From Candidatus Absconditicoccus praedator (lineage in GTDB: Bacteria > Patescibacteriota > Gracilibacteria > Absconditabacterales > Absconditicoccaceae), in NCBI RefSeq assembly GCF_021057185.1, contig NZ_CP054059.1:930001-962000 (forward strand): DNA of 32,000 nt. Reading direction: 5' to 3'. The position numbers were made by a program, and so were the translations under genes. Shown piece after piece: positions 1 through 32,000 of this stretch (its first letter is position 1; each line of letters opens with the position of its first letter). A model generated the notes under the pieces. The model ran no database searches. It saw nothing but the letters and a program-made list of their open reading frames with translations, and was not told the DNA's origin.

Positions 1-1
1 T

Positions 2-382
2 AATTTGACTGATTTTGTTGCTAGACTCAAACAATACTATCAATTTACCAAAGAAGACGGAGATCTGCCAGATTGGATGTACTACAAACCACAAACAAAT
101 CAAACCGGACTAGAATTTTTGGAAGAACTTTTTGATAAAATTGATGAAGAATTATCCGAAGATTTCAAAACTTGATTTGATCAAGCTTCACCAATTACTA
201 TTTCACAAGCAAAAGATGATTTTGAAGAATGGAAACAATGACTTAGATGAGAAGATTGGGAAGTATATATGGAAAAAAGAAGAAATATGTCTAGATTGAT
301 CAATTATATGAAAAAGTCGTTGATGATGACAGGAATGACCGGCTTTGAAGTAAGAGTTAATCTGCACGAGGACGAAGACTAA
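2..382 (+). CDS. hypothetical protein, C-terminal part (5' end outside window)
   Basis: Frame open from the window edge to TAA 380-382 with TGA=Gly (3 in-frame TGA). Reads ...DLPDWMYYKPQTNQTGLEFLEELFDKIDEEL...GFEVRVNLHEDED*. Followed by a hairpin + T-run terminator. No family recognised. Confidence 0.55.
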
Positions 383-401
383 AAATTTCATCTATCAACT
401 C

Positions 402-437
402 AAAAACCAGCTTCTATAAACAGGAGCTGGTTTTTTT
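402..437 (+). terminator. Rho-independent terminator
   Basis: Stem CCAGCT (407-412) / AGCTGG (425-430), followed by T7 run 431-437, directly after the stop at 382. Confidence 0.7.
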
Positions 438-474
438 GATTCCCCAAAAAATTAATAAGTAATTGATAATGTCT

Positions 475-585
475 ACCCCTCCAAAAGATTGTAACAAAGT
501 TGAAGAGGGATACCCCTCCAAAAGATTGTAACAAAGTTGAAGAGGGTCACCCCTCCAAAAGATTGTAACAAAGTTGAAGAGGGTA
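475..585. repeat. three near-identical tandem 37-bp units (ACCCCTCCAAAAGATTGTAACAAAGTTGAAGAGGGTn)
   Basis: Units at 475-511, 512-548 and 549-585 differ only at the junction bases. Each has complementary outer arms (ACCC-C-TC / GAGGGT) around a core TTGT-A-ACAA palindrome. A possible degenerate unit lies at 441-474. Confidence 0.9.
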
Positions 586-586
586 G

Positions 587-1872
587 CCCTAGTCTTGTCC
601 GAAACATTGATTTTATTATAAAAAAAGCTATAAGTATAGCATTTAAAATAATAAAATATATTTAAATATGGAAGGAATTAATGTAAAACAGATATTAGAA
701 ATAATACCTGATGAATTTATAGAAAAATTAGAAAAAAACTGTAATATAAATCATCAAGTTAAAAAAATGAGTTGAAAGGTAATGTTTAAACTGTTATTAA
801 TGTGAATATTAGATTGAGATAATTTAACACAAAGAACATTAGCATCAATATATAACAGTCCTGAATTTACTCAATATGCAGATAAATGAGAACAACAAAC
901 AAGACATACAACTATAAGTGATAGACTTATAAACATGGATTATAAATTCTTTGAGAAATTGTTTGAAGAAATAAGTAAAAAGTTTGAAAAAGTATTAAAA
1001 ATATGAGCAACAAAAATGAAGGTGGTGCTAAAGAGATTTGATTCTACATTAGTTTGAATATCAGAAAAACTACTTAAGTTTTGAATAAAAGCATGAAGTC
1101 CAGATGAAAGACATATAAAATTTACAGTCTGATTAAAGTGATTGTTGCCAAATAAAGTTTCAGTTTATGAAGAGCAAAAAGCAAGTAGTGAAGATGTAGC
1201 ATTATGAGAAACTATTTTACAAGAGACAACATCTAAAAATCAAATATTATTATTTGATAGATGAGTTCAAAAAAGAGAAACTTATTCAAAGCTAATAGAT
1301 AAAAATACAAATTTTGTAAGTAGATTAAGACAAAATACTAAGTATCAAGTTATAAGACAAAATAAAGAAGTAGAATGAATAAAAGTATGAAATTTAGTGT
1401 TAGAATGTGATGAAATAGTAAAATTATATTGAAAATGATGAGATATATTAGAAAAAGAATTAAGATTAATAAAAGCAATAAATCAAAAAAATGAAGTATT
1501 TTTATTTATAACAAATATGTATAATTTCACAGCAGAAGAAATAACAGAATTTTATGCAAGGAGATGGGATATAGAAGTATTTTTTAGATTTATAAAACAA
1601 GAATTTTGATTTAGTCATTTTGTATCAAGATCAAAGAATTGAATAATGAATATGCTATATATGACACTAATAACATCAATACTTGTAATAGTATATAAAT
1701 CAAAAAACAGTATAAAATCCTACAAAGAAGCTAAAAGAAGATTTATTGCTGAATTAGATGAATTAATTTTAATTGAGCTAGCAATAGCAATCTGAGGAGA
1801 TGTTGATCTTCTTAAAAAGAAATATTTAAATTATTATAAATACTCTTAATAAGGTTTCGGACAAGACTGGGG
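587..1872 (+). mobile_element. IS4-family insertion sequence (single DDE transposase gene, 19-bp terminal inverted repeats)
   Basis: Left end CCCTAGTCTTGTCCGAAAC (587-605). Right end GTTTCGGACAAGACTGGGG (1854-1872) is its reverse complement with 1 mismatch. The ends enclose one transposase ORF and are flanked on both sides by the same 37-bp repeat family in the same orientation. No clear target-site duplication seen. Confidence 0.85.
668..1849 (+). CDS. IS4-family DDE transposase (393 aa)
   Basis: ATG 668 to TAA 1847-1849, length 1182 nt (a multiple of 3), roughly 20 in-frame TGA read as Gly. Contains the IS4 signature Y-x2-R-x3-E-x6-K in ...EEITEFYARRWDIEVFFRFIKQEFGFSHF.... Confidence 0.85.
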
Positions 1873-1873
1873 T

Positions 1874-2020
1874 CACCCCTCCAAAAGATTGTAACAAACT
1901 TGAAGAGTACCCCCACTCCTAAATATTGTAACAAAAGGGATGGAGTACCCCACTCCAAAAGTTAGTAACAAAAAGGATGGAGTATTCCATTATTATGGTT
2001 TGTTACCAAAAGAATGGAAT
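1874..2020. repeat. four diverged units of the same 37-bp repeat family
   Basis: Units at about 1874-1908, 1909-1946, 1947-1983 and 1984-2020. The core TTGTAACAA / TAGTAACAA is retained and is roughly inverted (TTGTTACC) in the last unit. Outer arms differ but stay complementary: CTC/GAG, ACTCC/GGAGT (twice), ATTCCATT/AATGGAAT. Confidence 0.8.
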
Positions 2021-2045
2021 CTTTTCGTGCCCGGGCGCGGAAAGG

Positions 2046-2073
2046 TTGATTTTTACTTTTCTAGAATTATACT
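2046..2073 (+). promoter_or_regulatory. sigma70-like promoter candidate for the 2111 operon
   Basis: TTGATT (2046-2051), 16-nt spacer, TATACT (2068-2073), about 40 nt upstream of ATG 2111. Confidence 0.4.
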
Positions 2074-2110
2074 TTAATTTATCTTTAAAAGTTAAATAAA
2101 TAAATAATTT

Positions 2111-2971
2111 ATGGTTAAATTTTTGTGACTTAGTTTTGCCTGGATTTGTAGTTTTATGATTTTCTATATTTCTTTTTTGTTTTGAGATGATCTATCAGAG
2201 GAAATTGTGTACGACTTTATTGATCAGGTAGATGATTATGAGTTTTTTTATGATATAGATTTCCAAGTTGATTATGATATTAGTTGAACTTTTTTTGAAA
2301 AATTTAGTAGTGATGGAGACTGATACTCATACGAGTTTGGTTTGAATATTGATCTGCCAGAGGAAGTTGATGATGGCTTGATACCATTTGATTCAAATAT
2401 GAACTGAACAGTTAATTTTTACAATAATGCCAAAATAGATAATTTTCATATTAATATTTGAGCAGGTGCCAATATCTCATGACAAACAGCAGTTTGATGA
2501 GAAGACCAAATTTTGATAACCTTTTTGCAAGATTGAGAAGAGGAGTTTAGAGAGATTTTTGATACTTCTGATATCAATTTGGATCTACTTTTTACAAGGT
2601 TTTTGCCCTATATGGAAATAGAAGAAGGTGAAGTATTGAATTTGTCTGTTTTTTCTCCTATGTCTTTGAGATCAAAAGAGTCTATGAAAAATAATGTTGC
2701 TATTGAAAAAAAAGAAGAATGAAAGTATTCTATATCTTCATGATTTATGGGGATAGATTATGAGACAGTAGTTCACTTTGAGGATAAAAATATGATTAAA
2801 AAAGAAACTCCTTTTTTTTCTTATACAAAATCTGATTGAGATGAGCTTGATGTTGATAATATCGATCAACCAGATGATACCAACGATACAGATGATATAG
2901 ATGACCAAGACCAAGATACTCAGGATTGAAGTGAAGATGATTTAGAATGTAAACTTATCTGACATGATTAG
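2111..2971 (+). CDS. hypothetical membrane-anchored/secreted acidic protein (286 aa)
   Basis: ATG 2111 to TAG 2969-2971 (861 nt) with TGA=Gly. N-terminal hydrophobic segment MVKFLGLSFAWICSFMIFYISFLF. Highly acidic C-terminus ...DQPDDTNDTDDIDDQDQDTQDGSEDD.... Overlaps the next gene by 8 nt. Confidence 0.6.
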
Positions 2972-3704
2972 ATTAGAAAATCTTACAAAAAAATATTCTT
3001 CTACAACAGCTGTAGATAATATAAACTTGGAAATACCTTCTTGAAAATGTTTTGCCTTGCTTTGAAGAAATTGAGCTGGTAAATCTACAACTATCAAAAT
3101 GATAGTTTGAATAACCAATCCAACAAGTTGAGATATTTTCTTTGATGGCAGGACTATGCAAGAAGATGCAGTACAGATAAAATCTGAGATTTCATATATT
3201 CCTGATATGCCTTATGTTTATGAAAAACTAACTTGAATAGATTTTTTGTATTTTGTAGGAGTTGCTTACTGAATGAGTAAACAAACCATTAGAAAAAAAG
3301 CCCAAGAATTTTATGAGATGTTTGATTTTTATGAGATGTTGGACAAAAAGGTAGAAGATTACTCTCATGGTATGAGACAAAAACTTGTTTTTACTGCAGC
3401 ATTGATGCACAATCCCAAGTATTTAATTTTGGATGAACCAATGGTAGGGTTGGATTATCAGTGAGCTTACATAGTAAAAAAAATAATTAAATCTATCACT
3501 GAAAAGCTATGATGTACTGTGATATTGACCACACATCAAATATATGTTGCTGCTGAAATATCAGATGAAGTAGGGATTATACATGATTGAAAACTTGTAA
3601 AAACATTAAAAGACAAAGATTATATAAAAGAAAATCTTGAAGACACATTCCTTGAGTCAACTTGAACTGTATCAGAAAAATTTGAACAAATAATCACACA
3701 ATAA
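2964..3704 (+). CDS. ABC transporter ATP-binding protein (246 aa)
   Basis: Walker A LLGRNGAGKST (two of its Gly are TGA, at 3063-3065 and 3072-3074). ABC signature YSHGMRQKL. Walker B YLILDEP. H-loop TTHQ. ATG 2964 to TAA 3702-3704. Confidence 0.9.
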
Positions 3705-3705
3705 A

Positions 3706-5355
3706 ATGGAAAATCTTTTAATGAAATATTATTTTAAAACTTTGTTCTCAAGTATAAAAACTTTTGCAAAAGAAAAGCTTTTTTTCTTCATAGGTTGAAT
3801 AATACTTTTGTGAAGTTTTTGGATAATAATCTGAACAATTTGTTATATTTTTTTCAGTTACTTAATCAATAATTTTCCTTGAGGACATATTTTTGCTCCC
3901 AACTTGATCTCGTTTGTTGTATATATAATGTTTTTGGTTTTTGTCTTTTCTGGGTTTGTGGCAAGTATATCTACTTTGTACAAATCTAGAGAGATAAATT
4001 TTTTGATTTCTATGCCTTTTGAAAGCTATGAAATTTTTAGATACTGATTTTTGAAGATAGTATTTTTCTTGTTATTACCTGCATTGTTTTTGCTGTTGCC
4101 TATATTTTTTTCATATTGAATTGTTTCTGGGTATAGCATATTTTATTATTTGTTATCGTTGTTTGTAATTTTTGCGATGGTATATTTGGCTGTTTTCTTT
4201 TCTGTTGTTTTGTTTTTGTTGTTGTCTGCATTTGTTTTTTCATTTAAAAGAATATATATAAATTGATTTTTGTTGAGTGTTTTGGTGTTTATGCTGTTTT
4301 CTGCTTTGTTGGTGTTTTTCTCTGCTTATGAGAATATGACTGACCAAGAGACCTTTTTGGAGCAGTATATCCTTACATTTGATTATGAAAATATATTTCT
4401 TCCTTGGAACTGGCTAAATGCTATGTTTGTAAATTTTGTGCAGTGAAATTATTCTTTGTTTTTTAGTTGATTTTTGTTTACAGCTGTAAGTATTGTATTT
4501 TTTTATGCTCTTATATGATTTTTGTCACAAAAGTATTATTATCAAAGCAAAGAGAATTTTGCTATGTATAGTATTTTTCCTAAAAAGAAAACTGTAAGTT
4601 TGATCTCATTTTTTTGAAAAAATCCTAAAATAAATTTACTAAAAAAAGATTTTCTTTTGTATATGAAAGATCCTTCGTGGCTAAGTCAGTTTATGATATT
4701 TTTTGTACTTATATGAATAAGTGTGGTTGTGATAAATTCTATTACCCTTGAAGAGATAGATACTCCTATGACAGCTTCTATTATTACTTTGTCTACTTTG
4801 GCTCTTACCTGATTTATGATTTCTGCAACTGCTTTGAAAATTGTTTATCCAAATATATCAATAGAATGAAAATCTTTTTGGATACTTAGAACTATTCCAG
4901 TATGATTGAATTATATATATTTTTTGAAATTTATTTTCTTTGTGGTGTTTTTTGTTTTAGTAGGTTTGCTTATTAGCCAAGCTTATGCAAGTATAATTTG
5001 ATTTATAGATGTTGTGTATATATTTATTTTGTTGATGTTGTTGCCTTTGATATTTGTGGTTGTTAGCCTGTATTTTACTTTGTGAAATATATATCCAGAC
5101 TTTAATGAGACTAATCCTTCTCAGATAGCTACTTCTATGCCTGCTTTTGGAGCAGTAATTATTTCAAATATTTTTATAATAATTGTTTGTTTGCTTATTT
5201 ATTCCAAAGTTTTTAGTTATTATGAAAATGTACAAGAATGTGAAATTCTTTGATTATATTATTTTTGGGATGTTTTAGTTATTTTTTATCCTGTTTTGAT
5301 TTTGCTTTGAGTATTTATATCATGGATAGGGTATAGGCAGTTTATCAAGCTTTAG
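3706..5355 (+). CDS. large polytopic membrane protein, putative ABC-exporter permease partner (549 aa)
   Basis: I checked the frame codon by codon from ATG 3706 to TAG 5353-5355 and found only TGA in frame. Very hydrophobic F/L/I-rich sequence with many predicted TM segments. Starts 2 nt after the ABC ATPase stop. Confidence 0.75.
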
Positions 5356-6010
5356 AAGATGATTTGTATATTTCTATCATATTATAACAGCTTTCTGAAA
5401 GCAAGAAAAGTTGGTGTATACTTACAATATCAAAAAAGTTATCACCTGGATTTAATTTTTTGAAGTTGATTTTTATTGAATATCAGTATGATTTGCTTCA
5501 TGTCCGGTATTTAGGAAACAGTTTGTGATAGTTGAAATTTAAGTGTATTTGGTGTTTTCATCTTTCAAGAAGGTATATTTTTTGGGATTTGTAGTCTTGT
5601 TGTTTCAGGTACATATTGAAATGAGTATTGTGGGATAGTATATTTCTTATAAAACTAACTGTTTGTTCAAAATGAAAGTATTGTCATTTGAGGTTTTCTT
5701 GTAAAAATTTTTTGAATTCGTTATTGGTTTCCAAAAGTTCTTTGACGGTAGCTGTAATTCACCTGAACATACTTATTTGTGTGAAATAACCAAAAATATT
5801 TTGTTTTTCTTGGTTTTGATAGATTTCTTTTAAAAGTTTTTTAATTGTTTGTTCTTTTAGCGTAAAGCTTGTATTTTTTCATGTTTGTATTTTTAGGTCT
5901 TTTGCAAACTCTGATAAATCATTTTCTTTTATTATATCTTCAAGAAAAAGTCAAAGATACAAAAATCTATAATAAGACTGTATAAGATCAAGTGAGGACT
6001 TAATTTCCAT
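5342..6010 (-). CDS. hypothetical protein with HEPN-like R-x4-H motif (222 aa)
   Basis: Reverse-strand ATG at 6010 to TAA (5342-5344), 669 nt, frame verified codon by codon. Reads MEIKSSLDLIQSYYRFLYLG...FEQTVSFIRNILSHNTHFNMYLKQ.... The RNILSH motif resembles the HEPN / Abi_2 catalytic motif. Convergent 14-nt overlap with the permease gene. Confidence 0.6.
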
Positions 6011-6064: not shown

Positions 6065-6379
6065 TTATTCAAACATTCTTTTTAGGTCTTCATCTTTTAT
6101 CATAGCAGGTGTTCGCATAGGGTCAAAAGTAAGCTCGACTTCTACATTAGATTCAGGAAATTCATCTTGTACTGCCTGCTTAGTCATTTCTATGATAAGA
6201 TCAGCAGAGGGGCATGCTGGTGTAGTCAATGTCATTAGTATAAAAACATTATTTTCTTGTATATCCACATTGTATATAAGTCACAAGTTATATATATCAA
6301 TTACTGGCATATCAGGATCGTATACTTCTTGTAGTAGTTCGATTACTTTTTCTTCTGTGATATTATTGCTCATTTTCAT
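6065..6379 (-). CDS. DUF59/MIP18-family Fe-S cluster assembly protein (about 104 aa)
   Basis: M(KM)SNNITEEKVIELLQEVYDPDMPVIDIYNLGLIYNVDIQENNVFILMTLTTPACPSADLIIEMTKQAV...EVELTFDPMRTPAMI matches the DUF59 pattern (D-P-E/D...I-D-I-x-x-L-G-L-I, T-x-x-x-C-P). Alternative start at 6373. Confidence 0.85.
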
Positions 6380-6731
6380 ATCATGTTATTATATGTAAAA
6401 TTAAAAATATCAAAAATATTATTCCTCATAAAATTTTATTTCGTTCTTCTAGTGAAATCAATGATAAATTTACAAGTACAAACAATCCAAAAAGTAATGA
6501 TAGCTTATAACTTCTAGATGCAATACTCAAAGCTCATTTTACAGCAAAAAGTTTTTGTCAAAGGAAGAACAGATAGAAGCTTCATCACCATACAATTAAA
6601 AATACAGCAAAAAAACCAAATCATAATCATATTATCGGGTCTTGATATATATTTATATAATTGAATAAAAGATAAGCTATGCTAACTCCTACAAAAATTT
6701 TTATGAGTGCTCATATATGATAAAATATCAT
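6363..6731 (-). CDS. small membrane protein (122 aa)
   Basis: Reverse ATG 6731 to TAA (6363-6365), 369 nt, verified codon by codon. Hydrophobic: MIFYHIGALIKIFVGVSIAYLLF...GFGFFAVFLIVWGG.... The 3' end overlaps the DUF59 start. Confidence 0.6.
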
Positions 6732-6765: not shown

Positions 6766-7521
6766 TTAGTTTTCTACATTTATTTCATCTGCCTCTGTCT
6801 CTTCTACAAGAACTTCTTCTATAGATGGTATATAAAGAAAGTTGTTTCACATTTCATAAAACTTGTAGTACAATTTTTCCCAAAGTCAGTGAATTAGAGG
6901 TGTCAAAGTATAAGTAAGTATACTTGGTAGTGTAAGTAGGAATTCAGTTCATTCTCAAGCAGTAAGATTTATATTTTTGTATACTGCAGAGAAAAGTAAT
7001 AGAGAAAGGCTAAAAGCAATAGTTGTTCATACTATGTGGACACCACTATAGTTTGGATTTGTAGAAAACTCTATTACAGATAATGTTATAAAAACAGAAA
7101 AAAATATATGAAACGCAAGTATAAAAAATACTGCTTCTATATTGTCAAAAAATAGTATATATATAGGTGCAGCTATAAAAAACAATATAACGTTGATTAT
7201 GCTTCAAAGTCATAGCATTTTACCAAGATCATAGTACTTTTCTCCAAAAATCATATTGTATACCATAGTTATAATGCTATTTCATACCATAGTTCAAACA
7301 AATGCAATTACTAACATCACTAATGATAATAGAGGATTTCCTCAGCCTCAAGAAATGGAGCCTTGTATTGTTTCTTCAAACATTCAGCTAAAAATCATTA
7401 GCATAACAAATATAAAAAATGATATCATAAGTCAAACTACCAGTCATATTCCTGTTTTTCATACAATTGAATATGGTGATGGATTGGAAGGTGCAATATT
7501 AAGTGATTTTGAGTTTTCCAT
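6766..7521 (-). CDS. polytopic membrane protein (251 aa)
   Basis: Reverse ATG 7521 to TAA (6766-6768), 756 nt, verified codon by codon. Multiple TM-like segments (GLVVGLMISFFIFVMLMIF, IINVILFFIAAPIYILFF, FFILAFHIFFSVFITL) and an acidic C-terminal tail. Confidence 0.65.
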
Positions 7522-7547: not shown

Positions 7548-8102
7548 TTAATCGCATCATATTGTTTTTATATATTCTTCAAACTTATCAAATTCTCTTT
7601 CCTGACTCATGAAAGATATTACATATCAGTATCTTTCATAAACAAAATAAAATTGTGTCATATAGTAACTAGGTTGACTATCAAAAACAGATTCAAATAC
7701 GCCAAAATTTCATATGAATCAATTGATTTCTTGTCATTTACATGAGAAAGTATGTTCATTAAGTCATCAAAAATTTGTTGCAGGCATTTGATTTAGCAGT
7801 ATAGATGAGTTTGCCCTTGCAAACTCATCTGGATCTTGATTTACATTTGTTTTGGTTCTGGTAGCTATAAAATTCTTGTTGAATTCATCAAAATTTCCTT
7901 TTCTGTATGAAGTAAGTACTTTATTTCTAATCTGTTTTCATTCAAATATACTACTTGCAACTCTATTGTAATCCTTATTAATCTGTATATAAAAATCTTC
8001 AAAACTTACTGTTTCAGCTTCTTCCTCTCCTCAAAACCCCAAGCATCAAGAAATAGTAATTGTAATGAAAATGATCAAAAAGACATTTAAAAACTTTTTC
8101 AT
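7548..8102 (-). CDS. putative lipoprotein (184 aa)
   Basis: Reverse ATG 8102 to TAA (7548-7550), 555 nt, verified codon by codon. Signal peptide + lipobox MKKFLNVFLIIFITITISGC, with the lipobox Gly encoded by TGA. Confidence 0.7.
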
Positions 8103-8407
8103 TAAATTATACTAAGAATATAAACTCAACTAAAAATCATACCAAATAATGTTCATATTGCAAGTCATTTTATATATGCTTTATCTTTGTCTTCTTTTTC
8201 CTTTAGATCATCTTTTGAAATTAAAATAAAAGATATAATATATCAAAGCATAATTCAGGTTAGAAGTAAGTATCAAGGCATAAGTATATTTCCAGATAGT
8301 TCAAATATACTATCTTCAAGTATATAATCTCATCTCAAAAAAAATATTCATACAATTATAGACATCAAGAAGAATATTCCTTTTAGTGTCTCAAGTAGTA
8401 TCACCAT
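8102..8407 (-). CDS. small membrane protein (101 aa)
   Basis: Reverse ATG 8407 to TAA (8102-8104), 306 nt. Reads MVILLETLKGIFFLMSIIVGIFFL.... TAATG stop/start overlap with the lipoprotein gene. Confidence 0.55.
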
Positions 8408-8430: not shown

Positions 8431-10545
8431 TTAACTTTCTTTTTTGAGCTGGATTTTTCAATCATTTTCATCAATTGATATTATTTTTACTCTAATTTTA
8501 TCGTTTTCTTTAAACATAACTTTTGGATCTGATATGAATCATTCTCATAAGTTTTTAACATGACAAAGTCATGTCTTATTCTTTCAAAGCTCTACAAATA
8601 CTCAATATGATTCTACTCTGGTTATTTTTCATTCAATTGTTTCTCAAACTGTTGGTTGCCAAGAAGACTGTTTTATCATATCAATTGCAAGTTTTTCTTC
8701 TTCTTGATTTTTGGATGTAACAATTGTAGTTCAGTCATCTTTAAAATCAATTTTTGCTCAAGTTTCTTTAACAATATTGTTTATATTTGTTCATCATGAT
8801 CAAATAACATCTCTTACTTGAGTAGGAGTTAGTTTTAGTGTAGTTATTCTAGGTGCATAAACACTTAAACTTTCTCTTGGTTGTGATATTGTTTTTATCA
8901 TATCCTCAAGAATTTCATTTCTTGCTTTATTAGCCTTTTCTATAGCTTTCTCTACTATATCTAGTTGTAGGCCTTTTATTTTCATGTCCATTTGTAGTGC
9001 AGTAATTCAATTTTTTGTTCCTGCAACTTTGAAATCCATATCTCCAGTAAAGTCTTCAACTCACTGAATATCTGTTAAAATTTTGAATTTATCTCAATCA
9101 GTAACCAATCCCATAGCAACTCAACTTACAGGTTGTTTTATTGGTACTCATGCATCCATAAGCGATAGTGTGGATGCACATACAGATGCCATTGATGTTG
9201 ATCAGTTACAGCTTAATACTTCAGAAACAATTCTTGTTGTATAAGGGAATTCTTCCTCTCAAGGAATTACTGATTCAAGTGCTTTTTCTACCAGTTTTCA
9301 GTGTCAGATTTCTCTTCTGCTTGCAGGTCATCACCTTTTTGCCTCATTTGTAGAAAATCATGGCATATTATAATGGTGCATAAATCTTTGTTCAACAGCA
9401 TCAGACTCCATATCATCTACTAGTAGGTAATCTCAAGGAGCTCCTAATGTGGTTGCAGAAAATACTTGTGTTTCTCATCTTTGAAAAAGTCCCGATCAAT
9501 GTATTCTTGGAATAAGTCAAACTTCATGATAAAGTGATCTGATTTCATCAAGTTTTCTTCAATCTACTCTTTTTTCTTCATTGAGGATTTTTTCTCTTAC
9601 AAACTCTTTTACTATATTAAATACTGCTGATTTTACTTTTGTAGTTGTAAAGTTTGTGTTGTTTTCGTCTTCAATCTTGTCTTTTGTTTTTTCTAGTGAT
9701 TCCTGCTCAAATCAACTAACTATTTCGTTAAATTCTTTTTTAGTTGTTGGTATCAAAGCTTCTAATTTATCTTTTGTTATAATTTTTTTCAAAACTCCTA
9801 CTAATTCTTCAGAAGGCTTATTTGTAGTGATTTCTTGAGGTTTTATTTCAAATTGGCTCAAAAATTCTTCTTGGAATTCACATATTTTTTTGATGTTTTC
9901 TTGTCATATTTCAAAAGCTTTCATTAAAGTGCCTGTATCAACTTCATCTCAATTGCATTCTACCATTGTTATTGTGTCTTTTGTTCAAGCAAGTAATAAT
10001 TCTAGTGTTCAATTATTTGTTTCTTCATATGTAGGATTTATTATAAAGTTGCCATCTTTATATCAAATTCTTACAGCTCCAATTGGTCATTGTATGGGAA
10101 TTCAAGCTAGCATACTAGCAAGAGATGCTCAAATTATGCTTGGTACTGCTGTGGTGTTCTCTTTGTCAACAGATAATGGTGTTATACTTATAACTGTGTC
10201 ATTGATCATTCCGTCTGGAAACATAGGTCTAAGTGGTCTATCTGTAAGTCTTGAGGTGAGTATTGTCTGTTCGGAAGGCTTTCATTCTCTTCTAATGTAT
10301 AATGCTCACCCAATTTTTCATCAAGCATAAAAAGACTCTCTGCAATCTATTGTAAGGGGTAGGAAATCCTTATTTTCATCTGGTTTTTTGTTCATTACTG
10401 ATGTGACTAATACAGCTGTTTCTTCTAATTTTATGTATACAGATCAATCTGCTTCAGGAGCTAGCTTTCAAGAACTAACTTCAAATTGTTTTCATTCCCA
10501 TAAAAAACTTTTCTTTGTGTCACTAACTTCTTTCTTTTTTATCAT
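8431..10545 (-). CDS. pnp: polyribonucleotide nucleotidyltransferase (PNPase, 704 aa)
   Basis: Reverse ATG 10545 to TAA (8431-8433), 2115 nt. N-terminus ...GKLAPEADGSVYIKLEETAVLVTSV...DFLPLTIDCRESFYAGGKIGG...RRE...TSRLTDRPLRPMFP. Internal ...MDMKIKGLQLDIVEKAIEKANKARNEIL...PR...YAPRI. C-terminal KH (VIGSGGTNIN) and S1 (GKITRVESYGVFVEL) domains. The track ORF 8800-8991 is in the same frame. Confidence 0.95.
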
Positions 10546-22913: not shown

Positions 22914-24002
22914 ATGAATTATATAGAAGAAATTTTTGGTACTAGTATTGAAAATTATTTGTCTTTGTCTACAGTGTTTTTTTGAAATACAGTATTTGAG
23001 TATATATTTGCCTTTTTAATGTTTTTATTTGTATTTTTTGTGTTAAGAATTTTTAGAGCTGTGATACTAAAAAAACTTTCTAATATTTTTTATAATACAA
23101 AATCTGAGTTTGACAGTTTTATTATAGGTCTAATTCAAAATACTCCAAGGTATGTATATATTACAATTTCTATTTATATTCCACTCAAATACTTATTTTT
23201 ACCTGATGAGATTGATATAACAATAGATGCTATATTTCTTGTTGTGATTTTGTTGCAATTTATAAGAATAGCTACTGAGTTGGTGAAGTTCTTTTTGGCA
23301 AGGACATTATTAAATGAGGAAGATAAAGATTCTTTGACAACATACAATTTGCTTTTGGTAATAGCAAGAGTTGTTATATGGACTACTTCTTTGTTGTTTT
23401 TATTGATAAATCTTGGGTTTGAAATAACTCCACTTTTGGCAAGTTTGTGAGTGTGATGAATAGCAGTAGCATTTGCATTACAAAATATTCTGCAAGATAT
23501 ATTTTCTTCTATTTCTATATATTTAGACAAGCCATTTAAAATATGAGATTTTATAGCAGTTAACTGAAATTTTTGAACAGTAGAGAAAATATGAATCAAA
23601 ACAACTCGTATTAGAACACTACAGTGAGAACAGCTAGTTGTCTCAAATCAAGATATGACAACAGCCAGTGTAAATAACTTTGGGGAAATGGAAAAAAGAA
23701 GAGTTGTTTTTGAATTTGGTATAGTTTATGAAACTCCTGTAGAAAAAGTAAAAACAGCCAAAGAAATTGTAAAAAATATTTTTGAAGAAGATGATATAAA
23801 ATACTACACAGAGCTTAATAGAGTGCACTTTAAGGATTTTTGAGATTTTTCACTGAATTTTGAAGTTGTTCATACATTCAACACAAGTGATTTTGATATT
23901 AGAATGGATGTACAAGAAAATATAAATATTAGAATAATGGAAGAGTTCGAAAAAAATAATATAAATTTTGCTTATCCAACACAGGTTGTTTATAGAAAGT
24001 AG
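22914..24002 (+). CDS. MscS-family mechanosensitive ion channel (362 aa)
   Basis: ATG 22914 to TAG 24000-24002 (1089 nt). Pore-helix and beta-domain pattern ...LASLGVGGIAVAFALQNILQDIFSSISIYLDKPFKIGDFIAVNGNFGTVEKIGIKTTRIRTLQGEQLVVSNQ.... The track ORFs 23019-23450 and 23655-23843 are fragments of it. Confidence 0.9.
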
Positions 24003-24080: not shown

Positions 24081-26306
24081 ATGTGACAACAAAATAATAC
24101 TTCTCAAAAAGATCAAACTCAAAACAAAGTAAAACAATGATCTAAACTATCTATAAAAGCATTTGTAATTTGATGTGTTGGTTTTTTCTTTTTGTTTTTG
24201 CTTTTGGTGATTTTTGGTTTGTATTTTGCAATGCACAACCCTGAAGTTTTATCAAATATGGGGTTGGAAGTAGATACTGTTAGAAATATGTTGATGCTTT
24301 TTGCTGTTTTGTTTTTTTGATTGTTGTTTTTTGTGTTTTTTATTATGCTTGTTTTAAATGTTTATAGGCTTATTACTACAAAATACTGAAAGTTAAAATA
24401 TGCTTTTGGGAGTGGAATTTCTTGATTTATGTTTTTGATGGTTATTATACTTTGAGCTATAACACTTATTAATATTGGTGATATGACAGGTGAAAGGCAG
24501 GTTGTTACATCTAACTTAGTTAATCCTTACCTTGTAAGAGAATGATGAAATTTGGAACTTTTGGGCGATGAACCGAACATAGCTCCAGCTTATTTTAGGT
24601 TTGAATTGAATACGGTTGTTTTTGAGGAAAATTTTGGTTCTCAGGTTTGATCTATCCAAAATATTGAATCGTTTGAATTGGATTGTGGTAATTGACAAAC
24701 TTTGTCTGCTGGTGGTGAACTTTTTTCTGATGATGCGTTTTTTGATTGAATGTGTCTTTTTGAGGATGATACAAGTTATGATATTACTTTGACAACAAAT
24801 TATTATAGTCCAGAAACTCAAGAATGAGAATCCATATCTGATGATGTGATAAATCTAGATTTTGATTCCAAGGTAGACCTAACTGTGGATGGTGGTTCTT
24901 ATGATTTGAGTAGTGCTGGTGATCAAATAATAGCATGAGCTGTGCCAGCTAATTTAAGATTTGATGCAGGAGATGTTTTTACTGATCTAAATTTGCCTAA
25001 TATAAATATAGAATGGGACTTAAACTGAGACTGAGATATTGATGTTGAAGATACCAGTAGTGTAACCCATACAATATCAGATCCTTGAGTTTCAGAAATA
25101 AGGTATAGGCTTCCAGATGTGTCAGATAAATTTTATTCTATAAGACTAAGAACACAAGAGTCAAATGCTCCAGCATGTGATGTTGATTTTGAAGAAAGAT
25201 CAGGCTGACAGTATGATATAGATGTATCAGTGCCTTCAGCTGTTTCTGCAGATGCATATACCTATGTAATATACAACGAGGATGATTGAGAAGAACATGA
25301 AGTTGTTGAAACTTCAGATGATAGTATAACTGAAGAAATTCCTTGATGAAGCAATTATATAATTCAGGTAGAATATGAAACTTTTGATTGAGAGGTGGGA
25401 TTTTGTGAAACAGAATCTTTTCATGCTTGAGCAAGTGATTATGAACTTGATTATGATCTTTGAGCTATTTTATGATCTGATGATGAAATCTCTAATTTAG
25501 AGCAAAATGATGAGTGAGAATATACAGCTGGTAGACTGCCTGTAAGATTACAACTTCAAATAAATGGACTTGAACCAGAACCAACATGAGATTATAGAAA
25601 AATAGTAAGACTTGATTGAGATAGAATAATGTGAAGAGATTGAGAATTTCGTGAAGTAATAAGAGAAGAGTGAGAGTATACTATACAAGTGACTATTGAA
25701 GATGATAGAGGGAATGAAATTCAGCGTGATATTAATCTTGTTGTGGAAGAAGCTCCTTTGGAAGCAAGGCTTGATGTTAGTCCAGATAGTTGAGAAAGTC
25801 CTTTGGATGTTACTTTGGATGGATCAATTTCAAATTTAAATGTAGAAGATGATAGAATTGCTTACTTTCATTGGGATTTTGGTGATGGAGAAAGTATAGA
25901 TAGTACAAGTGATGGTGTAGTAGAGCACACTTATGAGTTTGATAATGAAACATGATGAAGATTTACACCTAGTGTAACTGTAGAAACTCATGAATGATTA
26001 GAAGATACTGCAGAACAAGATATTGTGGTTCAAAGAGAAAGAAGAGATTTAGATATATCTACACCAAATAATCCAACTCAATCTGCAAGTGTATGAGAGA
26101 GGGTTGAATTTGAAGTAGATGTTGATTGAATGATTGATTATGTAGAATGGGATTTTGATGATGGTAGTAGTATGAGTGGAGAGTGAAGACAATATACTGA
26201 AGTAGGAAATACTTTTGAAGAAGAGTGAACATATAGGGTGGAAGTTGAAGTTAGTTTTGAGGATTCACCATCTGTTAGTGGAAGAATAAGAATTGAAGTT
26301 GAGTAA
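24081..26306 (+). CDS. membrane-anchored protein with PKD-like repeats (741 aa)
   Basis: ATG 24081 to TAA 24304+2002 = 26304-26306 (2226 nt). Three to four N-terminal TM segments, then repeats with the PKD signature: IEWDLNGDGDID, SPLDVTLDGSIS...YFHWDFGDGES...HTYEF, and VEWDFDDGSS...GTYRVEVEV. Confidence 0.75.
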
Positions 26307-26330: not shown

Positions 26331-27260
26331 ATGATTTGTGGAAATGATGCATCGTCTGAAATAGTGAAAAAAATTTTTAATCTTATTGAAAAAAATAAGG
26401 TTGATTCTAATTTTGTGTTGCTAAGTTGACCCTCAAATGTAGGGAAATCAACTCTTGTCAGAAAGCTTTCAAAAAATATATTGAAAGATTTTTATGATAA
26501 TGATTTTTTATTTGTTAAAGATTTATCTTATTATCTTTGAAAAAAACATTCTTTAAAAGTTGATGTTTGAGAAAAAGATAGAAAAATAGATATTCCAAAT
26601 GTTTGAAGTTTTTATGATATGTGATCAAGACAAATTATAGATTGGTGTCATAAATCAGCAAATTCTTGAAAGAAAATAATACTTTTGGAAAATATTGAAA
26701 GAATGAGTAATTCAGCTGCTAATTCACTGCTAAAGTTATTTGAAGAGCCTCCAAAGCAGACATTTATTTTTGCTACTACAGAAAACAAATTTTCAATAAT
26801 TTCTACTATTTATTCAAGGGCATTTATAGTGAATTTTTATAGTTTGAATTATGAGGAGGTAGTTTGTTATTTGGAGTCTGATTTTCCAGATACTGATAAG
26901 AGAAAGTTGGAGCTTGCTGCAAAATTTTCTTTGGGAAGATTTGGATTTGCCAAAAAACTTTTGAAATCTACTGCAGACTTAAATTTTGAGGATATTGAAT
27001 CTTATTTTGAAAGATTTGTTAATCTTTTGAATTATTCTTGAAATTATTCAGAAAAATATAAAATATTGGAAAATATTAAAAAATCTTGATGGATAATGAT
27101 TTTTTTTGATATTTTGGCATATCATTTTTCAATAAAAAAGCAATTTGATAGATTGGAACATATTTTTTATGCAAGAAGACTTATAGAATGAAATGTTTCT
27201 TATGAAAATGTTTTTTTAGATTTTTTGCTGAATATTGATAATGTTGAAAAAAAGGTATAA
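26331..27260 (+). CDS. holB: DNA polymerase III delta-prime subunit-like clamp-loader protein (309 aa)
   Basis: P-loop-like FVLLSGPSNVGKSTL, then ILLENIERMSNSAANSLLKLFEEPPKQTFIFATT....STIYSRA (clamp-loader box VII / SRC-like). The track ORF 26685-27041 is an internal fragment. Confidence 0.8.
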
Positions 27261-27642
27261 GCTGACTTGAAAAGATATAAATTTTTTGTTCAAAAAACAA
27301 AATATTGTACATTGAAAATATTTTTCCTTTTTTTGGTTTTATCAATATCCAAATAGAAAGTACAACCAGTTTGCTTTTCAGGTGCCTTTGAAGTTGTCAA
27401 AAAAAGCTACTACTAGGAATTTTATAAAAAGACAGCTTTTTGAATATATTAAAAAAAAACAATATGAGAAAAAAACCTTTAATTGATGATATTATAAAGT
27501 ATTTATAGTTTTCAACAAAAAAACTATTGCCTTTTTGAAAGAAAATGTTGAATCTGAACAAAAAAAACTTATAAAAGAACAAATACTTGATTTTTTTGCT
27601 TTCAGTTTTAATAATCTAAATAAATTTTTATGAAAGAGGTAA
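27241..27642 (+). CDS. rnpA: ribonuclease P protein component (133 aa)
   Basis: MLKKRYKLTGKDINFLFKKQNIVHGKYFSFFW...FAFQVPLKLSKKATTRNFIKRQLFEYIKK matches the RnpA pattern (basic RNR-type motif K-K-A-x-x-R-N-x-x-K-R). The ATG overlaps the holB 3' end by 20 nt. TAA at 27640-27642. Confidence 0.8.
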
Positions 27643-28895
27643 AGTCATATCTTCAACATATTGTTGATAAGGTGAAGTCTAAAACAAAGCAAATTAAAGA
27701 TAAAAATGAGAAAGAATTCAAAGAAATCGAAGAAATTGATAAAAAAGCAGATTGATCAACAAAAAAGTCAAAGACTCTAATTGAAAACGTTACTCAAAAA
27801 GCAGATTTAAGGTCGATACTAACATTTTGGCTTGTATGAATTTTTGTAGTATATCTGTGATATGTGCTTTTTGATTCTTTGGATCTTTTGTATTTGGTGT
27901 TGGCAGCATTTATAATTTCAATTGCAATGGAAGCAGTTATTGATATTTTCCAAAAAAAGCTTCCAAGAATACTTTCTATAGTGTTGGCATATTTGTTTTT
28001 GTTTATGTTGCTATTATCAGGTTTTTTGGTAATAGTACCTTTTGTGCTTGCTCAAAGTGCTGATATAGTTCAAATATTTTTGGATATGATAAATCAGCTT
28101 CAAAAAGATTTGAGAACCGAATGACTTAGATATGTGATAGAAACAAGTAATCTTATTCCTTGAATTATAAAACAATTTATACTTGAATGATTACAGGATA
28201 GAGAAGTTGTGATGGCAATACAATATGCTATCCAAGAAAATATATCTCAAATAGCATCTTTTGGTACGAACTTTATCAATAATATTTGAGGAATAGTGGT
28301 TTCAATAGTTGGTGGATTTTTTTCTGCTTTGTTTCAAATATTTTTGGTGTTGGTCTTGGCTATATTCTTTTCTGCACAAAAAGATTCTGTTATAAACTTC
28401 ATAGCTTGAGTAACAAACCACAAAGAATATATGATACTGAAAATACAAAAACTGTATAGAAAATTGTGATTCTGGTTGAAATGACAGTTTTTATTGAGTA
28501 TCTTTATATTTTTTACTGTATTGTTGGTGTTGAACACTATAGCAGTATTTGGTTTGGATTTGCCCAACAAATTTACGCTTGCTCTAATAGCATGAATTAC
28601 TGAGTTTATACCAATAATATGACCTATATTGTGAGCTATACCAGCAGTGCTTGTGGCAGTATCTGAGTACTGATTGATTTGATTTTTGGTGATAGTTATA
28701 GTTTATACTCTTATTCAGTGATTTGAAAATTATGTATTGGTGCCAATGGTGATGAATCATGCTCTTTGAGTTAATGCTCTTTTGATACTGATAGCAATGC
28801 TTATTTGAGGTTCTTTGATGTGATTTGTATGAATTGTACTATCAGTTCCAATTGCAGTGATTGCAAATTTGATATTTGAGGATATAGTAAAATAA
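27630..28895 (+). CDS. AI-2E/PerM (UPF0118) family transporter (421 aa)
   Basis: ATG 27630 to TAA 28893-28895 (1266 nt). Multi-TM protein with the family-typical ...LIAGITEFIPIIGPILGAIPAVLVAV...IVYTLIQGFENYVLVPMVMNHALGVNALLILIAML.... Overlaps rnpA by 13 nt. Confidence 0.85.
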
Positions 28896-28919: not shown

Positions 28920-29447
28920 ATGAATATTGAAAAATTCTTGTGAAGTAAAACAAGAGCAGGTATTATCAAATATCTACTTTTCAAAAGACAGGGGATCTCT
29001 ATGAGAGCATTGGAGACAGATTTGGCTTGGTCTTTTACTGCAATAAAGAAACAAGTAGATAGTTTACTAGAGGCAGATATTGTTACGATCAAAAAAGATC
29101 AAACTAAGTGGTCTATATATATAAATGATCAAGTGTATGATCTTGTAAGAAGAATATTTCTTTATAGTTTGGAGTTCGAGCTGCAAAAAACTTTTTCTTT
29201 GTATCCTTGAATTGTTGAAAAGTATTATCTTTGAAAAATTTTTTGAAATAATATAAATGCAGATATGGTAGTTGTATATAAAACAACAGATCCAGAATTT
29301 TTATCTGATATGAAAAATAAAATTTCTGAAATTTTTGTTGATTATTATATAGATAATGTGGGAGTAGTTTTTATGCAATCTTGAGACTTTCAAAGAAGAT
29401 ATAGACTTGCAGATAAGTTTGTTTTAAATCTAATAACAAACTCATAA
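28920..29447 (+). CDS. winged-helix (ArsR-like) DNA-binding protein (175 aa)
   Basis: MNIEKFLGSKTRAGIIKYLLFKRQGISMRALETDLAWSFTAIKKQVDSLLEADIVTIKKD resembles an ArsR/wHTH N-terminal domain. ATG 28920 to TAA 29445-29447. Confidence 0.6.
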
Positions 29448-30229
29448 TGGTGAAAGAGGTTTTTTATCCTACAAGTCCACAAATTTTGCATGAAATGGTG
29501 GTGAGTCTGACTGTATCTGTACAAAGTTTTGTGGATGAAAATTTATCAGTACATCCCAAAATAGCTTTGGTTCCAAATGATTATTATATATATTCTTGAG
29601 CTGTTATGGCTTCTGCTTATTCGGCTTTATCCAAAAACAAAGATATCAAAGAAATTATCGTAGTTTGAAGAAATAGTGATAAAAGTTTTACTTGATATTG
29701 AGTTCCAAGTTTCTGAAGTATTAAAAATATTTTGTGAGAGAAAAAGGTATCATCAAGAGTAAAACAATTATTGGATGAGTATAAAGACTTTCACTGATTT
29801 GATAACGATGAGATGTTTTCAAACATAGATTGTCAGATGCCTTTTGTGTTGTCAACATTTAATATCAATTCTTTATTGCCTGTGATTGTTGGAAGGACAA
29901 ATAAATATATAAAACTTGTAAATTTTTTATCAGAAGCAATAAAAGAAAAGCATGTGGCAGTAATAATAAGTAGCAATATATCTAATACACAGTGATCTTG
30001 AAAAATAATAAAAAAAGACAGTAAGCAAGCACAGGCAATTGTTCAAAATAACCTTAGAGATTTGCCATTTTCTTGAGATAGTTCAAATATTTTATTAAGA
30101 ATTTTTTCTTCTGTTTGTAAAAAAAGATGATATGATATAAATCCTTTGATTTATTCAAATTCTTCAGATTTTGATAAAGATTCCAATATTTCAAGGTGAT
30201 ATTTTAGTATGATTTGATGAATCTGATAA
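29447..30229 (+). CDS. Memo-like protein (AmmeMemoRadiSam system protein B family, 260 aa)
   Basis: MVKEVFYPTSPQILHEMV...HPKIALVPNDYYIYSGAVMASAYSAL resembles the Memo N-terminal pattern (FYP...P..GY.YSG..AA.AY). TAATG overlap with the upstream gene. TAA at 30227-30229. Confidence 0.7.
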
Positions 30230-30260
30230 GTTTTTGATATACTAATTAAACTAATATTTT

Positions 30261-30725
30261 ATGATGAGAAATATTGTAGTGTTGGAAAATATTCGTAGTT
30301 GTTATAATGTATGAAATATTATAAGAACTGCTGATGTTTTGTGATTTGATGTTATTTTGTCTTGATATACTCCTTCTCCTTATCAAAATTCTAGAGTTTC
30401 CAAGACTTCTTTGGGTGCAGAATATAGTATTGATATTTTGGAGTTTTATAATCCCACTAAGACGATTGATTATCTTCAAAAAAATAATTATAGTTTGATA
30501 GTAGCAGAAAGCTTTGGTTGAGAGAAGTTGTCAAAATTTTTTGATAAAAAAAATCTTGATAGATTTTGTATAATTTTTGGGAATGAAAAAAGTTGAGTGT
30601 TGGAAGAAACTATAGAAAAGTCTGATTATTTGGTGTGAATCCCAATGATTTGAAAAAAAGAGTCTTTAAATGTTTGACAGTCAGCAGCAATGTTTATGCG
30701 AGAATATTACAGATTTTTAACCTAA
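30261..30725 (+). CDS. SpoU/TrmH-family RNA 2'-O-methyltransferase (154 aa)
   Basis: MMRNIVVLENIRSCYNVGNIIRTADVLGFDVIL...IIFGNEKSGVLEE....D.LVGIPMIGKKESLNVGQSAAMFMRE shows SPOUT motifs 1-3. Confidence 0.85.
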
Positions 30726-30730
30726 AAGAA

Positions 30731-30790
30731 AACCGGCTTCTGGAATGCCAGGCCGGTTCATTTTATTTGTTTTTTTGTTTTTTTGGACTG
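30731..30790 (+). terminator. Rho-independent terminator
   Basis: AACCGGC-TT-CTGG-AATG-CCAG-GCCGGTT hairpin (30731-30758), followed by a T-rich tract. Confidence 0.8.
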
Positions 30791-30940
30791 TCAGTAGGAA
30801 TTTATCTTATCCCTAGTTTATCTGACTGTCCTGATAGGTTTTGTTGCTTGCAACATTTTGGTAAAGTTACTAAGCATAGAGGGAAATGCCCTTCTCAAAA
30901 CCCATAGAGTGGTGCTGGTGGAGGTGCGCCAACTCTTTAA
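30785..30940 (+). ncRNA. candidate structured RNA of unknown class (strand uncertain)
   Basis: GC-elevated stretch in an AT-rich genome with nested complementarity. GGACTGTCAG (30785-30794) / CTGACTGTCC (30822-30831). GGTTTTG (30837-30843) / CAAAACC (30896-30902) enclose AGAGGG-AAATG-CCCTTCT. AGAGTGGTGC (30906-30915) / GCGCCAACTCT (30926-30936). No convincing ORF. Confidence 0.3.
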
Positions 30941-31103
30941 GTTTTGATTATGTTAATATTATAGTAATTAAAAGAAAATTTACAAAAGAAGGGATTGTGT
31001 TTGTTGTTTTTTTGTGTTTGATATGTGACAACTTTCTAAAAAAATGTGTAGTATGCTATTTTGTGATTTATTTTGGTGAGCAAGATAGAAAAAATTAAAT
31101 ATA

Positions 31104-31131
31104 TTGAAATATTTAAAAAAATTATTATATT
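31104..31131 (+). promoter_or_regulatory. sigma70-like promoter candidate for ssrA
   Basis: TTGAAA (31104-31109), 16-nt spacer, TATATT (31126-31131), 8 nt upstream of the tmRNA 5' GGGG. Confidence 0.45.
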
Positions 31132-31139
31132 GAGGGTAT

Positions 31140-31522
31140 GGGGATGATATGGTTTCGATGAAGGTGTAGTACAGCGGATAGTGGCCTCTACTGGATGATA
31201 GTACCCCAGTATAAAATAATCTATCCCACAAAAAGTGCAGACAAAAACTTAAGATTGAGTGCAGCACAAAGCTATGCAGTAGCAGCATAGTTTTGTCCTA
31301 ATAAAGAGGCTTAGGCTGCCAAAAATCCCACAATTGACCCCTTCTATATTGTGGGACAGATAATAAGAAGGGATTTGTTTAACAAATTAATTAAAAGGAC
31401 TATATGCCTGCTTGTAGGCTGAAGTCGCCTTTCTTATGAGAGGAGTAAATATGCAAGCTATGGGGGTAGAAGCTATCTGTTGTAACCTTCAGACATGGGT
31501 TCAATTCCCATCATCTCCACCA
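31140..31522 (+). ncRNA. ssrA: transfer-messenger RNA (tmRNA, one-piece)
   Basis: 5' GGGGATGATATGGTTTCGATGAAGG. The 3' end GGGTTCAATTCCCATCATCTCCACCA gives a T-arm, an acceptor stem pairing with the 5' end, and CCA. Internal tag ORF GCA...TAG at 31237-31290 encodes ADKNLRLSAAQSYAVAA*. Confidence 0.93.
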
Positions 31523-31540
31523 TATAATAAAACTACAAGG

Positions 31541-31565
31541 CACTTAAACTACTTTAAGTGTTTTT
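31541..31565 (+). terminator. Rho-independent terminator of ssrA
   Basis: CACTTAAA (31541-31548) / TTTAAGTG (31553-31560), loop CTAC, followed by T5. Confidence 0.75.
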
Positions 31566-31713
31566 ATGTTTACAAAAATTTTTTAAAACTCTAAAAAATA
31601 AAAAATATAATTTGAGATGTAATGAAAGGAATATATGATGAACAATAGGGAGTGAAAGAAACCTTTTGCCGTTGGACTGATGACTTGCTGTCAGAAGATG
31701 AGTAACTAGATTG

Positions 31714-31986
31714 ATGCATGTGATTTCTGTAAAAGAAGCACTATCAGAAGAAAATTATCAAGAATATTTTAATACAGCCAAAGAAAATCTACTAGATCAT
31801 ATATGAGATGATAGGTACAATTATCGACAAGATCCTGTCACAAGAGAAGAACTGGATGCATACTTTCACTGATGAACTATAGAATATCCAAGATGAAATG
31901 AAATCCAAATTCCAGCTTGAACTATTTCAGAAGAACTATACGAACTAGCAATCCAGAAACTAGAAGAAGTAGAACAAGCAAGATAG
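31714..31986 (+). CDS. small hypothetical protein (90 aa)
   Basis: ATG 31714 to TAG 31984-31986 with 5 in-frame TGA=Gly. Reads MHVISVKEALSEENYQEYFNTAKENLLDHIGDDRYNYRQDPVTREELDAYFHGG.... Start uncertain. Lies directly downstream of ssrA. Confidence 0.4.
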
Positions 31987-32000
31987 GAAAGGAGAGAAAA

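Follow-up and report, generated by a model that had tools for sequence, protein, structure and literature searches.

Translation table 25, in which UGA encodes glycine, is reportedly the code of Candidate Division SR1 and Gracilibacteria, and is said to have been described by Campbell et al. and by Rinke et al. in 2013. The present analysis concerns the genetic code of Candidatus Absconditicoccus praedator as it appears in a stretch of 32,000 nucleotides (contig NZ_CP054059.1, positions 930,001 to 962,000 of the forward strand; hereafter the window), and in particular the meaning of the codons UGA, CGA and CGG. A. praedator, which preys on Halorhodospira, has been cultivated and originates from a hypersaline alkaline lake (PMC11452946). 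In its clade UGA is read by a tRNA-Gly whose anticodon is UCA, charged by glycyl-tRNA synthetase, and release factor 2 (RF2) has been lost (Campbell et al. 2013, via PMC13293708 and PMC8629427). GTDB groups Absconditabacterales and BD1-5 in the class JAEDAM01, and the gTranslate preprint assumes table 25 for all of them. A further reassignment, of CGA and CGG to tryptophan, was predicted for Absconditabacteria by Shulgina and Eddy in 2021 (PMC8629427) and has been reiterated for Absconditabacterales (PMC13092985). The tryptophan identity elements expected in the corresponding tRNA(UCG) and tRNA(CCG) are G73 and the lack of A20 (PMC8629427).

The window has the common features of table 25: UGA as glycine, UGG as tryptophan, UAA and UAG as the only stops, a low guanine-plus-cytosine (GC) content and an origin in the Candidate Phyla Radiation (CPR). 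Nothing differs with respect to UGA; the difference concerns CGA and CGG, which behave as tryptophan in the window and are not so encoded in table 25. Table 4, in which UGA encodes tryptophan, is used by Mycoplasmatales, Hodgkinia, Zinderia and several insect endosymbionts; it is alike in that a genome that is reduced and rich in AT has turned the UGA stop into a sense codon, and in that the open reading frame (ORF) structure is identical, and differs in the amino acid, which is read here as glycine.

Candidatus Vampirococcus lugosii (Moreira et al. 2021, PMC8080830) belongs to another genus and shares a syntenic set of genes for polynucleotide phosphorylase (PNPase), three small membrane proteins or lipoproteins, a DUF59 protein and a 222-residue protein, at about 60% amino acid identity. 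It also shares UGA as glycine, TGA supplying a very large part of its glycine codons, and its locus has a GC content of 20% compared with 29% in the window. With the Absconditabacterales code predicted by Codetta, the window has in common rare CGR codons (CGA and CGG), arginine dominated by AGA, CGR at conserved tryptophan positions and a low GC content. The two CGR codons together make up 8.2 per 10,000 codons in the window, and the published values do not exceed 37 for CGA and for CGG lie mostly below 7 (PMC8629427). The support in that study came from Pfam-column statistics and tRNAs, while the support presented here comes from the exchange of CGR and TGG between orthologues of A. praedator, V. 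lugosii and two metagenome-assembled genomes (MAGs). The names praedator, Absconditicoccus and Vampirococcus do not occur in the available part of the supplementary tables of PMC8629427.

Reading frames and stop codons in the window

Under the standard code (table 11), the longest stop-to-stop frame in the window, which has a GC content of 29.3%, was 167 residues, and 12 ORFs of at least 95 residues were present in 32 kb. When TGA alone was taken as sense, the longest frame rose to 848 residues. Removal of one of the other two stops instead gave maxima of only 250 residues for TAG and 244 residues for TAA. A non-overlapping gene set with TGA as sense comprised 29 genes and covered 91.8% of the window. 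All 29 genes contain at least one in-frame TGA (range 1 to 54 per gene, 482 in total), none contains an in-frame TAA or TAG or a frameshift, and they terminate with TAA (24 genes) or TAG (five genes). Frame lengths divisible by three, with TAA or TAG at the end, are a product of ORF construction and were given no evidential weight; the TGA pattern is regarded as non-random because of the homology evidence.

The lengths of the resulting proteins were close to those of their orthologues (GroEL, 553 residues versus 548; PNPase, 704 versus 711). Pfam domains ran unbroken and at full length through the TGA codons of GroEL, translation initiation factor IF-2, PNPase, peptidyl-tRNA hydrolase (Pth), GroES, the ABC transporter ATPase, MscS, HolB, RnpA, SpoU, the DUF59 protein and others; residues 22–524 of GroEL, for example, matched positions 1–489 of the 490 in PF00118 across 35 TGA codons. 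These results bear out the original prediction, made from the sequence alone, that standard-code ORFs are broken here and intact frames appear once TGA is sense, and that a standard-code annotation would be wrong, every gene being fragmented under table 11. The individual codons it had named are TGA and lie in frame, at 11742–11744 and 11757–11759 in IF-2 (AVMxHVDHxKT, where x is TGA), at 16357–16359 and 16366–16368 in GroEL (VTMxPKxRN), and at 3063–3065 and 3072–3074 in the Walker A motif of the ABC transporter ATPase (LLxRNxAGKST). TGA was also found at the glycine positions of the Pth motif (VVxLxNPx) and of a lipobox (ITISxC), and TGG at the tryptophan of the PKD repeats HWDFGDG and EWDFDDG, as had been described.

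TGA codons coincide with conserved glycine residues

The window genes contain 482 TGA, 224 GGN and 64 TGG codons, so that glycine accounts for 2.3% of residues without TGA and for 7.2% with it. Because database translations depend on the code assumed by the depositor, database homologues were not used to read the amino acid at TGA; standard-code organisms and a comparison of codons at the DNA level were used instead.

Five proteins, with X placed at each TGA, were aligned to their E. coli K-12 orthologues, which were translated from DNA: PNPase (8431–10545, minus strand; 704 residues, 46 TGA), IF-2 (10716–13193, plus strand; 825 residues, 53 TGA; P-loop GHVDHGKT), Pth (13215–13754, plus strand; 179 residues, 13 TGA; PF01195, 2.4e-49), GroES (15924–16229, plus strand; 101 residues, six TGA) and GroEL (16267–17928, plus strand; 553 residues, 35 TGA). 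Glycine was found opposite 106 of the 145 aligned TGA codons (73%) and tryptophan opposite none (0/145), an E. coli tryptophan never standing opposite TGA in any of the five alignments. For single proteins, the TGAs on glycine were 33 of 45 aligned in PNPase (E. coli Pnp), 31 of 49 in IF-2 (InfB), 10 of 12 in Pth, where all three glycines of GLGNPG are TGA, and five in GroES. In the same alignments 37 of 52 GGN codons of the window (71%) lay on glycine. When all codons were tallied by aligned residue, TGA was the only well-sampled codon whose most frequent residue was non-standard, conservative swaps aside.

For GroEL, a panel of 75 standard-code sequences was used, consisting of 73 loci (one genome per species; the standard-code loci number at least 73, among the matches listed), the E. 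coli protein and the TGA-free locus L060. Twenty of the window GroEL TGAs fell in columns that were 100% glycine across this panel. The columns with at least 90% glycine numbered 36, and the window codon was TGA in 21 of them and GGN in 15. None of the 75 sequences had tryptophan in a column occupied by a window TGA.

Codon alignments of orthologues from five relatives gave a similar picture at the DNA level: TGA stood opposite TGA 151 times and opposite GGN 132 times. TGG stood opposite TGG in 14 pairs, and TGG is kept at conserved tryptophan positions. The assignment of UGA to glycine, and not to tryptophan or selenocysteine, is therefore supported by three independent tests and is as firmly established as sequence analysis permits, with no contradicting evidence. 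The original prediction had preferred glycine over table 4 and over selenocysteine, and the alignment counts, the GroEL columns and the exchange of TGA with GGN agree with it; TGA columns dominated by tryptophan, which it had named among the opposite outcomes, were not seen, tryptophan being absent from the 145 aligned positions as well as from the GroEL columns.

Tryptophan-like behaviour of CGA and CGG codons

Among the 9,764 codons of the window, those of the arginine family comprise 248 AGA, 46 AGG, nine CGT, seven CGA and one CGG, so that CGA and CGG together number eight. Four of these sites could be compared with homologues, being one invariant tryptophan, one position with a direct TGG orthologue, one aromatic position and one conserved CGA.

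The invariant tryptophan lies in the DUF59 / FeS_assembly_P protein (6065–6379, minus strand; 104 residues; PF01883, 1.5e-16), in which the CGA at 6113–6115 (residue 89) occupies the tryptophan of the (P)PW motif. The position is tryptophan in four of four PDB homologues and in 19 of 21 database homologues; an 'R' was found only in P0001, which is the window's own Logan copy, and in the 80%-identical P0002, whose locus, L085, likewise carries CGA at this site. In the relatives' locus L089 and in V. lugosii, unlike the window, the codon is TGG. The only CGG of the window, at 5504–5506, is located in the 222-residue hypothetical protein (5342–6010, minus strand; eight TGA) and corresponds to TGG in L085 and to CGA in L089 and V. 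lugosii. The exchange was also seen in the other direction, as the TGG at residue 16 of the window PNPase is CGA in L089 and the TGG at residue 214 of a 251-residue membrane protein (6766–7521, minus strand; 15 TGA) is CGG in L089. A CGA at 30699–30701 in the SpoU-family RNA 2'-O-methyltransferase (30261–30725, plus strand; 154 residues, eight TGA) falls where PDB homologues have F, W or H, and the orthologue from L008 likewise has CGA there. The CGA at 6441–6443, in a 122-residue membrane protein (6363–6731, minus strand; nine TGA), stays CGA in three of three relatives and is otherwise uninformative. The remaining CGA codons are found at 14767–14769 and 15760–15762 in a 412-residue orphan protein, at 21904–21906 in an 847-residue protein and at 31825–31827 in a 90-residue protein.

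When all orthologue pairs were pooled, CGR stood opposite CGR seven times, opposite TGG five times and opposite AGR or CGY not once. The 164 pairs that began from AGR or CGY had arginine in 74 cases, lysine in 48 and other residues in the rest, and never TGG or CGR. A. praedator thus probably reads CGA and CGG as tryptophan, in agreement with the published prediction for Absconditabacterales (PMC8629427, PMC13092985), besides reading UGA as glycine. If it does, its actual code would be table 25 with the addition of tryptophan at CGR, a combination that matches no NCBI table. Since these codons behave as tryptophan, table 25 probably mistranslates them; the original prediction of table 25 accordingly holds for UGA, while the completeness of that table probably does not.

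Alternative explanations

Under table 4, with UGA as tryptophan, the long ORFs are identical to those found with table 25, and Logan/ENA proteins of A. praedator and its relatives do show W at TGA (P0001, P0002, P0005, P0007 and P0008). That W, however, falls on invariant glycines of standard-code homologues, such as that of NLGLIY in the DUF59 protein, whose single TGA lies there. Under table 4 the window proteins would contain 5.6% tryptophan (TGG plus TGA) and only 2.3% glycine, conserved tryptophan positions are still TGG, and the alignments with E. coli and with the 75 GroELs placed TGA on glycine and never on tryptophan, which together exclude this assignment. The TGAs might instead be true stops or special events (for example pseudogenes, sequencing errors, selenocysteine incorporation or programmed read-through) in place of a genome-wide reassignment, as would agree with the standard code interrupting every gene. 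This reading is excluded, as 482 in-frame TGAs contrast with no TAA, TAG or frameshift in 29 genes, the Pfam matches extend at full length through the TGAs, and these align with glycine and not with cysteine or selenocysteine; moreover, an independent Logan assembly (SRR15691272) agrees with the window at 100% identity along 14,505 bp, and four relatives carry TGA or GGN at the corresponding codon positions. A selenoprotein pattern, with isolated UGA codons at cysteine or selenocysteine active sites of a few genes, was considered and rejected, the TGAs being spread over all of the genes and located on glycine. Stop-codon recoding also occurs in some phages, and the window contains an insertion element, so that it could represent a recoded phage or mobile element rather than a recoded cellular genome. 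This is refuted by the housekeeping content (IF-2, PNPase, Pth, GroES and GroEL, HolB, RNase P protein and tmRNA), the identity of a window protein to one on a 1,129,696-bp contig of Ca. A. praedator, and the synteny with the V. lugosii chromosome.

Plain table 25, with CGA and CGG remaining arginine and the pattern of CGR and TGG being a coincidence or a real substitution between arginine and tryptophan, is the alternative for these two codons. NCBI translates CGR as R, and predictions for rare codons are more error-prone by the account of Shulgina and Eddy themselves (PMC8629427). Against it, arginine at the invariant DUF59 tryptophan is limited to two sequences that both have a CGA codon, CGR is exchanged with TGG and not with AGR or CGY, the 164 AGR or CGY pairs never include TGG, and CGA is kept at the same site across genomes even though AGA dominates arginine; we consider plain table 25 rather unlikely. 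Some limits apply to the interpretation preferred here. About 27% of aligned TGAs lie on residues other than glycine in E. coli, a rate that the window GGN codons share (29%); tryptophan at CGR rests on eight codons, four of which are in proteins that have no usable homologues; and, as a limit of the window, no tRNA gene was found in it (tmRNA only) or in 11 relatives' loci, and no release-factor gene was found in the window by Pfam searches. Taken together, it is nearly certain that the window is part of the chromosome of Ca. Absconditicoccus praedator, a member of the Absconditabacterales (SR1) in the GTDB class JAEDAM01 of the CPR/Patescibacteria, and that in this organism UGA encodes glycine while UAA and UAG are the only terminators, with CGA and CGG most likely encoding tryptophan.

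TGA usage and a proposed decoding mechanism

Of the glycine codons of the window, at 29% GC, 68% are TGA, which makes it the majority glycine codon. The TGA share is 0.84 at 20% GC in the V. lugosii locus (L088), 0.70 at 24% GC in L085, 0.53 at 30% GC in L089 and 0.14–0.38 at 30–42% GC in the more distant TGA-using relatives L005–L009. The possibility that the share of 68% is exceptional was therefore rejected, the window not standing out among the loci of its relatives. Across loci the TGA share broadly climbs with falling GC content, L009 and L006 being exceptions. AT-biased mutation in a genome of 29% GC may drive the drift from GGN to UGA, because GGA and TGA are separated by a single change, and the rise of the TGA share as GC falls fits this view.

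By analogy with the clade, UGA would be read by a dedicated tRNA-Gly, having UCA as its anticodon, that is charged by glycyl-tRNA synthetase. RF2 would have been lost, and release factor 1 would then handle both UAA and UAG. CGR would be decoded by tRNA(UCG) and tRNA(CCG) with tryptophan identity, as is expected from the clade (PMC8629427).

Source organism and database entries

The 412-residue orphan protein (14587–15825, plus strand; 15 TGA, two CGA) is identical, with 100% identity and coverage, to an NCBI entry named 'hypothetical protein [Candidatus Absconditicoccus praedator]' (P0032), and this assignment to Absconditabacteria/SR1 agrees with the placement in the CPR that had been drawn from the code. 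Among 5.8 billion clustered proteins it had no homologue but itself, and no Pfam or NCBIfam match was found; it has a hydrophobic N-terminal segment and many cysteines, and looks species-specific. The NCBI sequence has glycine at 15 of 15 TGA positions and arginine at two of two CGA positions, as a translation with table 25 gives. As the entry already carries glycine at TGA, the recoding was already known for the A. praedator genome, and UGA as glycine here is not new: the code is well established for the clade, and the genome has been published with this property correctly annotated.

Synteny of the block from PNPase to DUF59 extends to V. lugosii contig JAEDAM010000005.1 and to two MAGs, and the DUF59 proteins of the window and of V. 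lugosii share 70% identity. In a scan of genome contigs, the GroEL identity of relatives was at most 77%, among the matches listed. The MAGs L004, L006, L008 and L009 ('uncultured Candidatus Peribacteria bacterium') and L005 and L007 ('bacterium') have TGA at invariant glycine columns of GroEL, with one to seven per gene, and so L004–L009 use UGA as glycine. L060 also bears the Peribacteria label, yet has a GC content of 59% and no in-frame TGA in GroEL. The NCBI Peribacteria label thus spans recoded and standard-code lineages alike.

Tryptophan at TGA was noted for the five Logan/ENA entries and with respect to loci L084–L087, for example as NLWLIY in place of the NLGLIY of every standard-code homologue. 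P0006 (NCBI, with glycine) and P0007 (with tryptophan) differ solely at TGA positions. The gene callers evidently defaulted to table 4.

Other genes in the window

Besides the genes already described, the window contains, all on the plus strand, genes for a HolB-like DNA polymerase III delta' (26331–27260; 309 residues, nine TGA), the RNase P protein component (27241–27642; 133 residues, five TGA) and a Memo / AmmeMemoRadiSam system protein B-like protein (29447–30229; 260 residues, 15 TGA). A tmRNA was found at 31140–31522 on the plus strand by ARAGORN and by Rfam (RF00023, 105 bits); it encodes the tag peptide ADKNLRLSAAQSYAVAA in a frame that stops at TAG. The C-terminal GGM tail of GroEL is encoded at 17872–17904 by a 9-nt repeat, ATG TGA GGT, in which TGA and GGT alternate as glycine.

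Transport proteins are represented by the ABC transporter ATPase (2964–3704, plus strand; 246 residues, 11 TGA; PF00005, 1.4e-21), two glycines of whose Walker A motif GRNGAGKST are encoded by TGA, by an ABC_tran_2 membrane protein (3706–5355, plus strand; 549 residues, 19 TGA; PF16949, 4.9e-36), by an MscS-type mechanosensitive channel (22914–24002, plus strand; 362 residues, 10 TGA) and by an AI-2E family transporter (27630–28895, plus strand; 421 residues, 20 TGA). A lipoprotein (7548–8102, minus strand; 184 residues, 10 TGA) has the lipobox ITIS-G-C with its glycine encoded by TGA, and a small membrane protein is found beside it (8102–8407, minus strand; 101 residues, eight TGA). Hypothetical proteins are encoded on the plus strand at 13829–14581 (250 residues, four TGA), 28920–29447 (175 residues, five TGA) and 31714–31986 (90 residues from the first ATG, five TGA and one CGA). 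At the left edge, the 3' part of a coding sequence that extends beyond the window (2–382, plus strand; 126 residues shown, three TGA, stop TAA) gave no Pfam match.

Four further plus-strand genes encode very acidic products, in which aspartate and glutamate amount to 20–24% of residues versus 6–9% for lysine and arginine. These are an acidic hypothetical protein (2111–2971; 286 residues, 15 TGA), two large acidic hypothetical proteins (18201–20195; 664 residues, 39 TGA; and 20224–22767; 847 residues, 36 TGA, one CGA and a faint SLH match), and a PKD-domain surface protein (24081–26306; 741 residues, 39 TGA) whose WDFGDG and WDFDDG repeats have TGG at tryptophan. These features would be in keeping with secretion or a place on the cell surface in a predator of hypersaline habitats.

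An insertion element within a repeat array

An IS4-family insertion element (IS) is located at 587–1873 on the plus strand (Pfam DDE_Tnp_1, 3e-17; NCBIfam IS4, 1e-48), bounded by 19-bp terminal inverted repeats, CCCTAGTCTTGTCCGAAAC and GTTTCGGACAAGACTGGGG. Its transposase coding sequence (668–1849; 393 residues) contains 20 in-frame TGAs, so that the element is adapted to the code of its host. Units of 37 nt (consensus TACCCCTCCAAAAGATTGTAACAAAGTTGAAGAGGG) form a tandem array, which the IS splits into two parts, at 474–590 and 1879–1984. Each unit has a short internal inverted repeat, and divergence is greater among units on the right side of the IS (81% matches versus 95%). A break in the Logan assembly falls exactly at 1869, beside the end of the IS. 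Between the array and the gene at 2111–2971, the otherwise very AT-rich intergenic DNA contains a short GC-rich island at 2025–2045 (GTGCCCGGGCGCGGAAAGG).

Implications

For annotation, table 11 breaks up every gene of this DNA, a fallback to table 4 places tryptophan at about 5% of residues, and table 25 is probably wrong at CGA and CGG. Public collections hold mistranslations of the table-4 kind for this clade, and homology searches that include such entries yield a false signal of UGA as tryptophan.

The present comparison adds support from orthologues and at the DNA level for the predicted reading of CGR as tryptophan, in a species that can be cultivated and checked experimentally. If CGR is tryptophan, the DUF59 peptide would read ...ELTFDPMWTPAMIK / ...VELTFDPMWTPAMIK; if it is arginine, the tryptic peptide would be ELTFDPMR / ...VELTFDPMR. 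Were the former true, the deposited table-25 proteome would carry arginine where the cell inserts tryptophan. To our knowledge, A. praedator is one of only two cultivated Absconditabacteria, and its growth in co-culture would then make it a tractable organism in which to obtain, by proteomics or tRNA charging, the first direct proof of the reassignment of a sense codon in bacteria.

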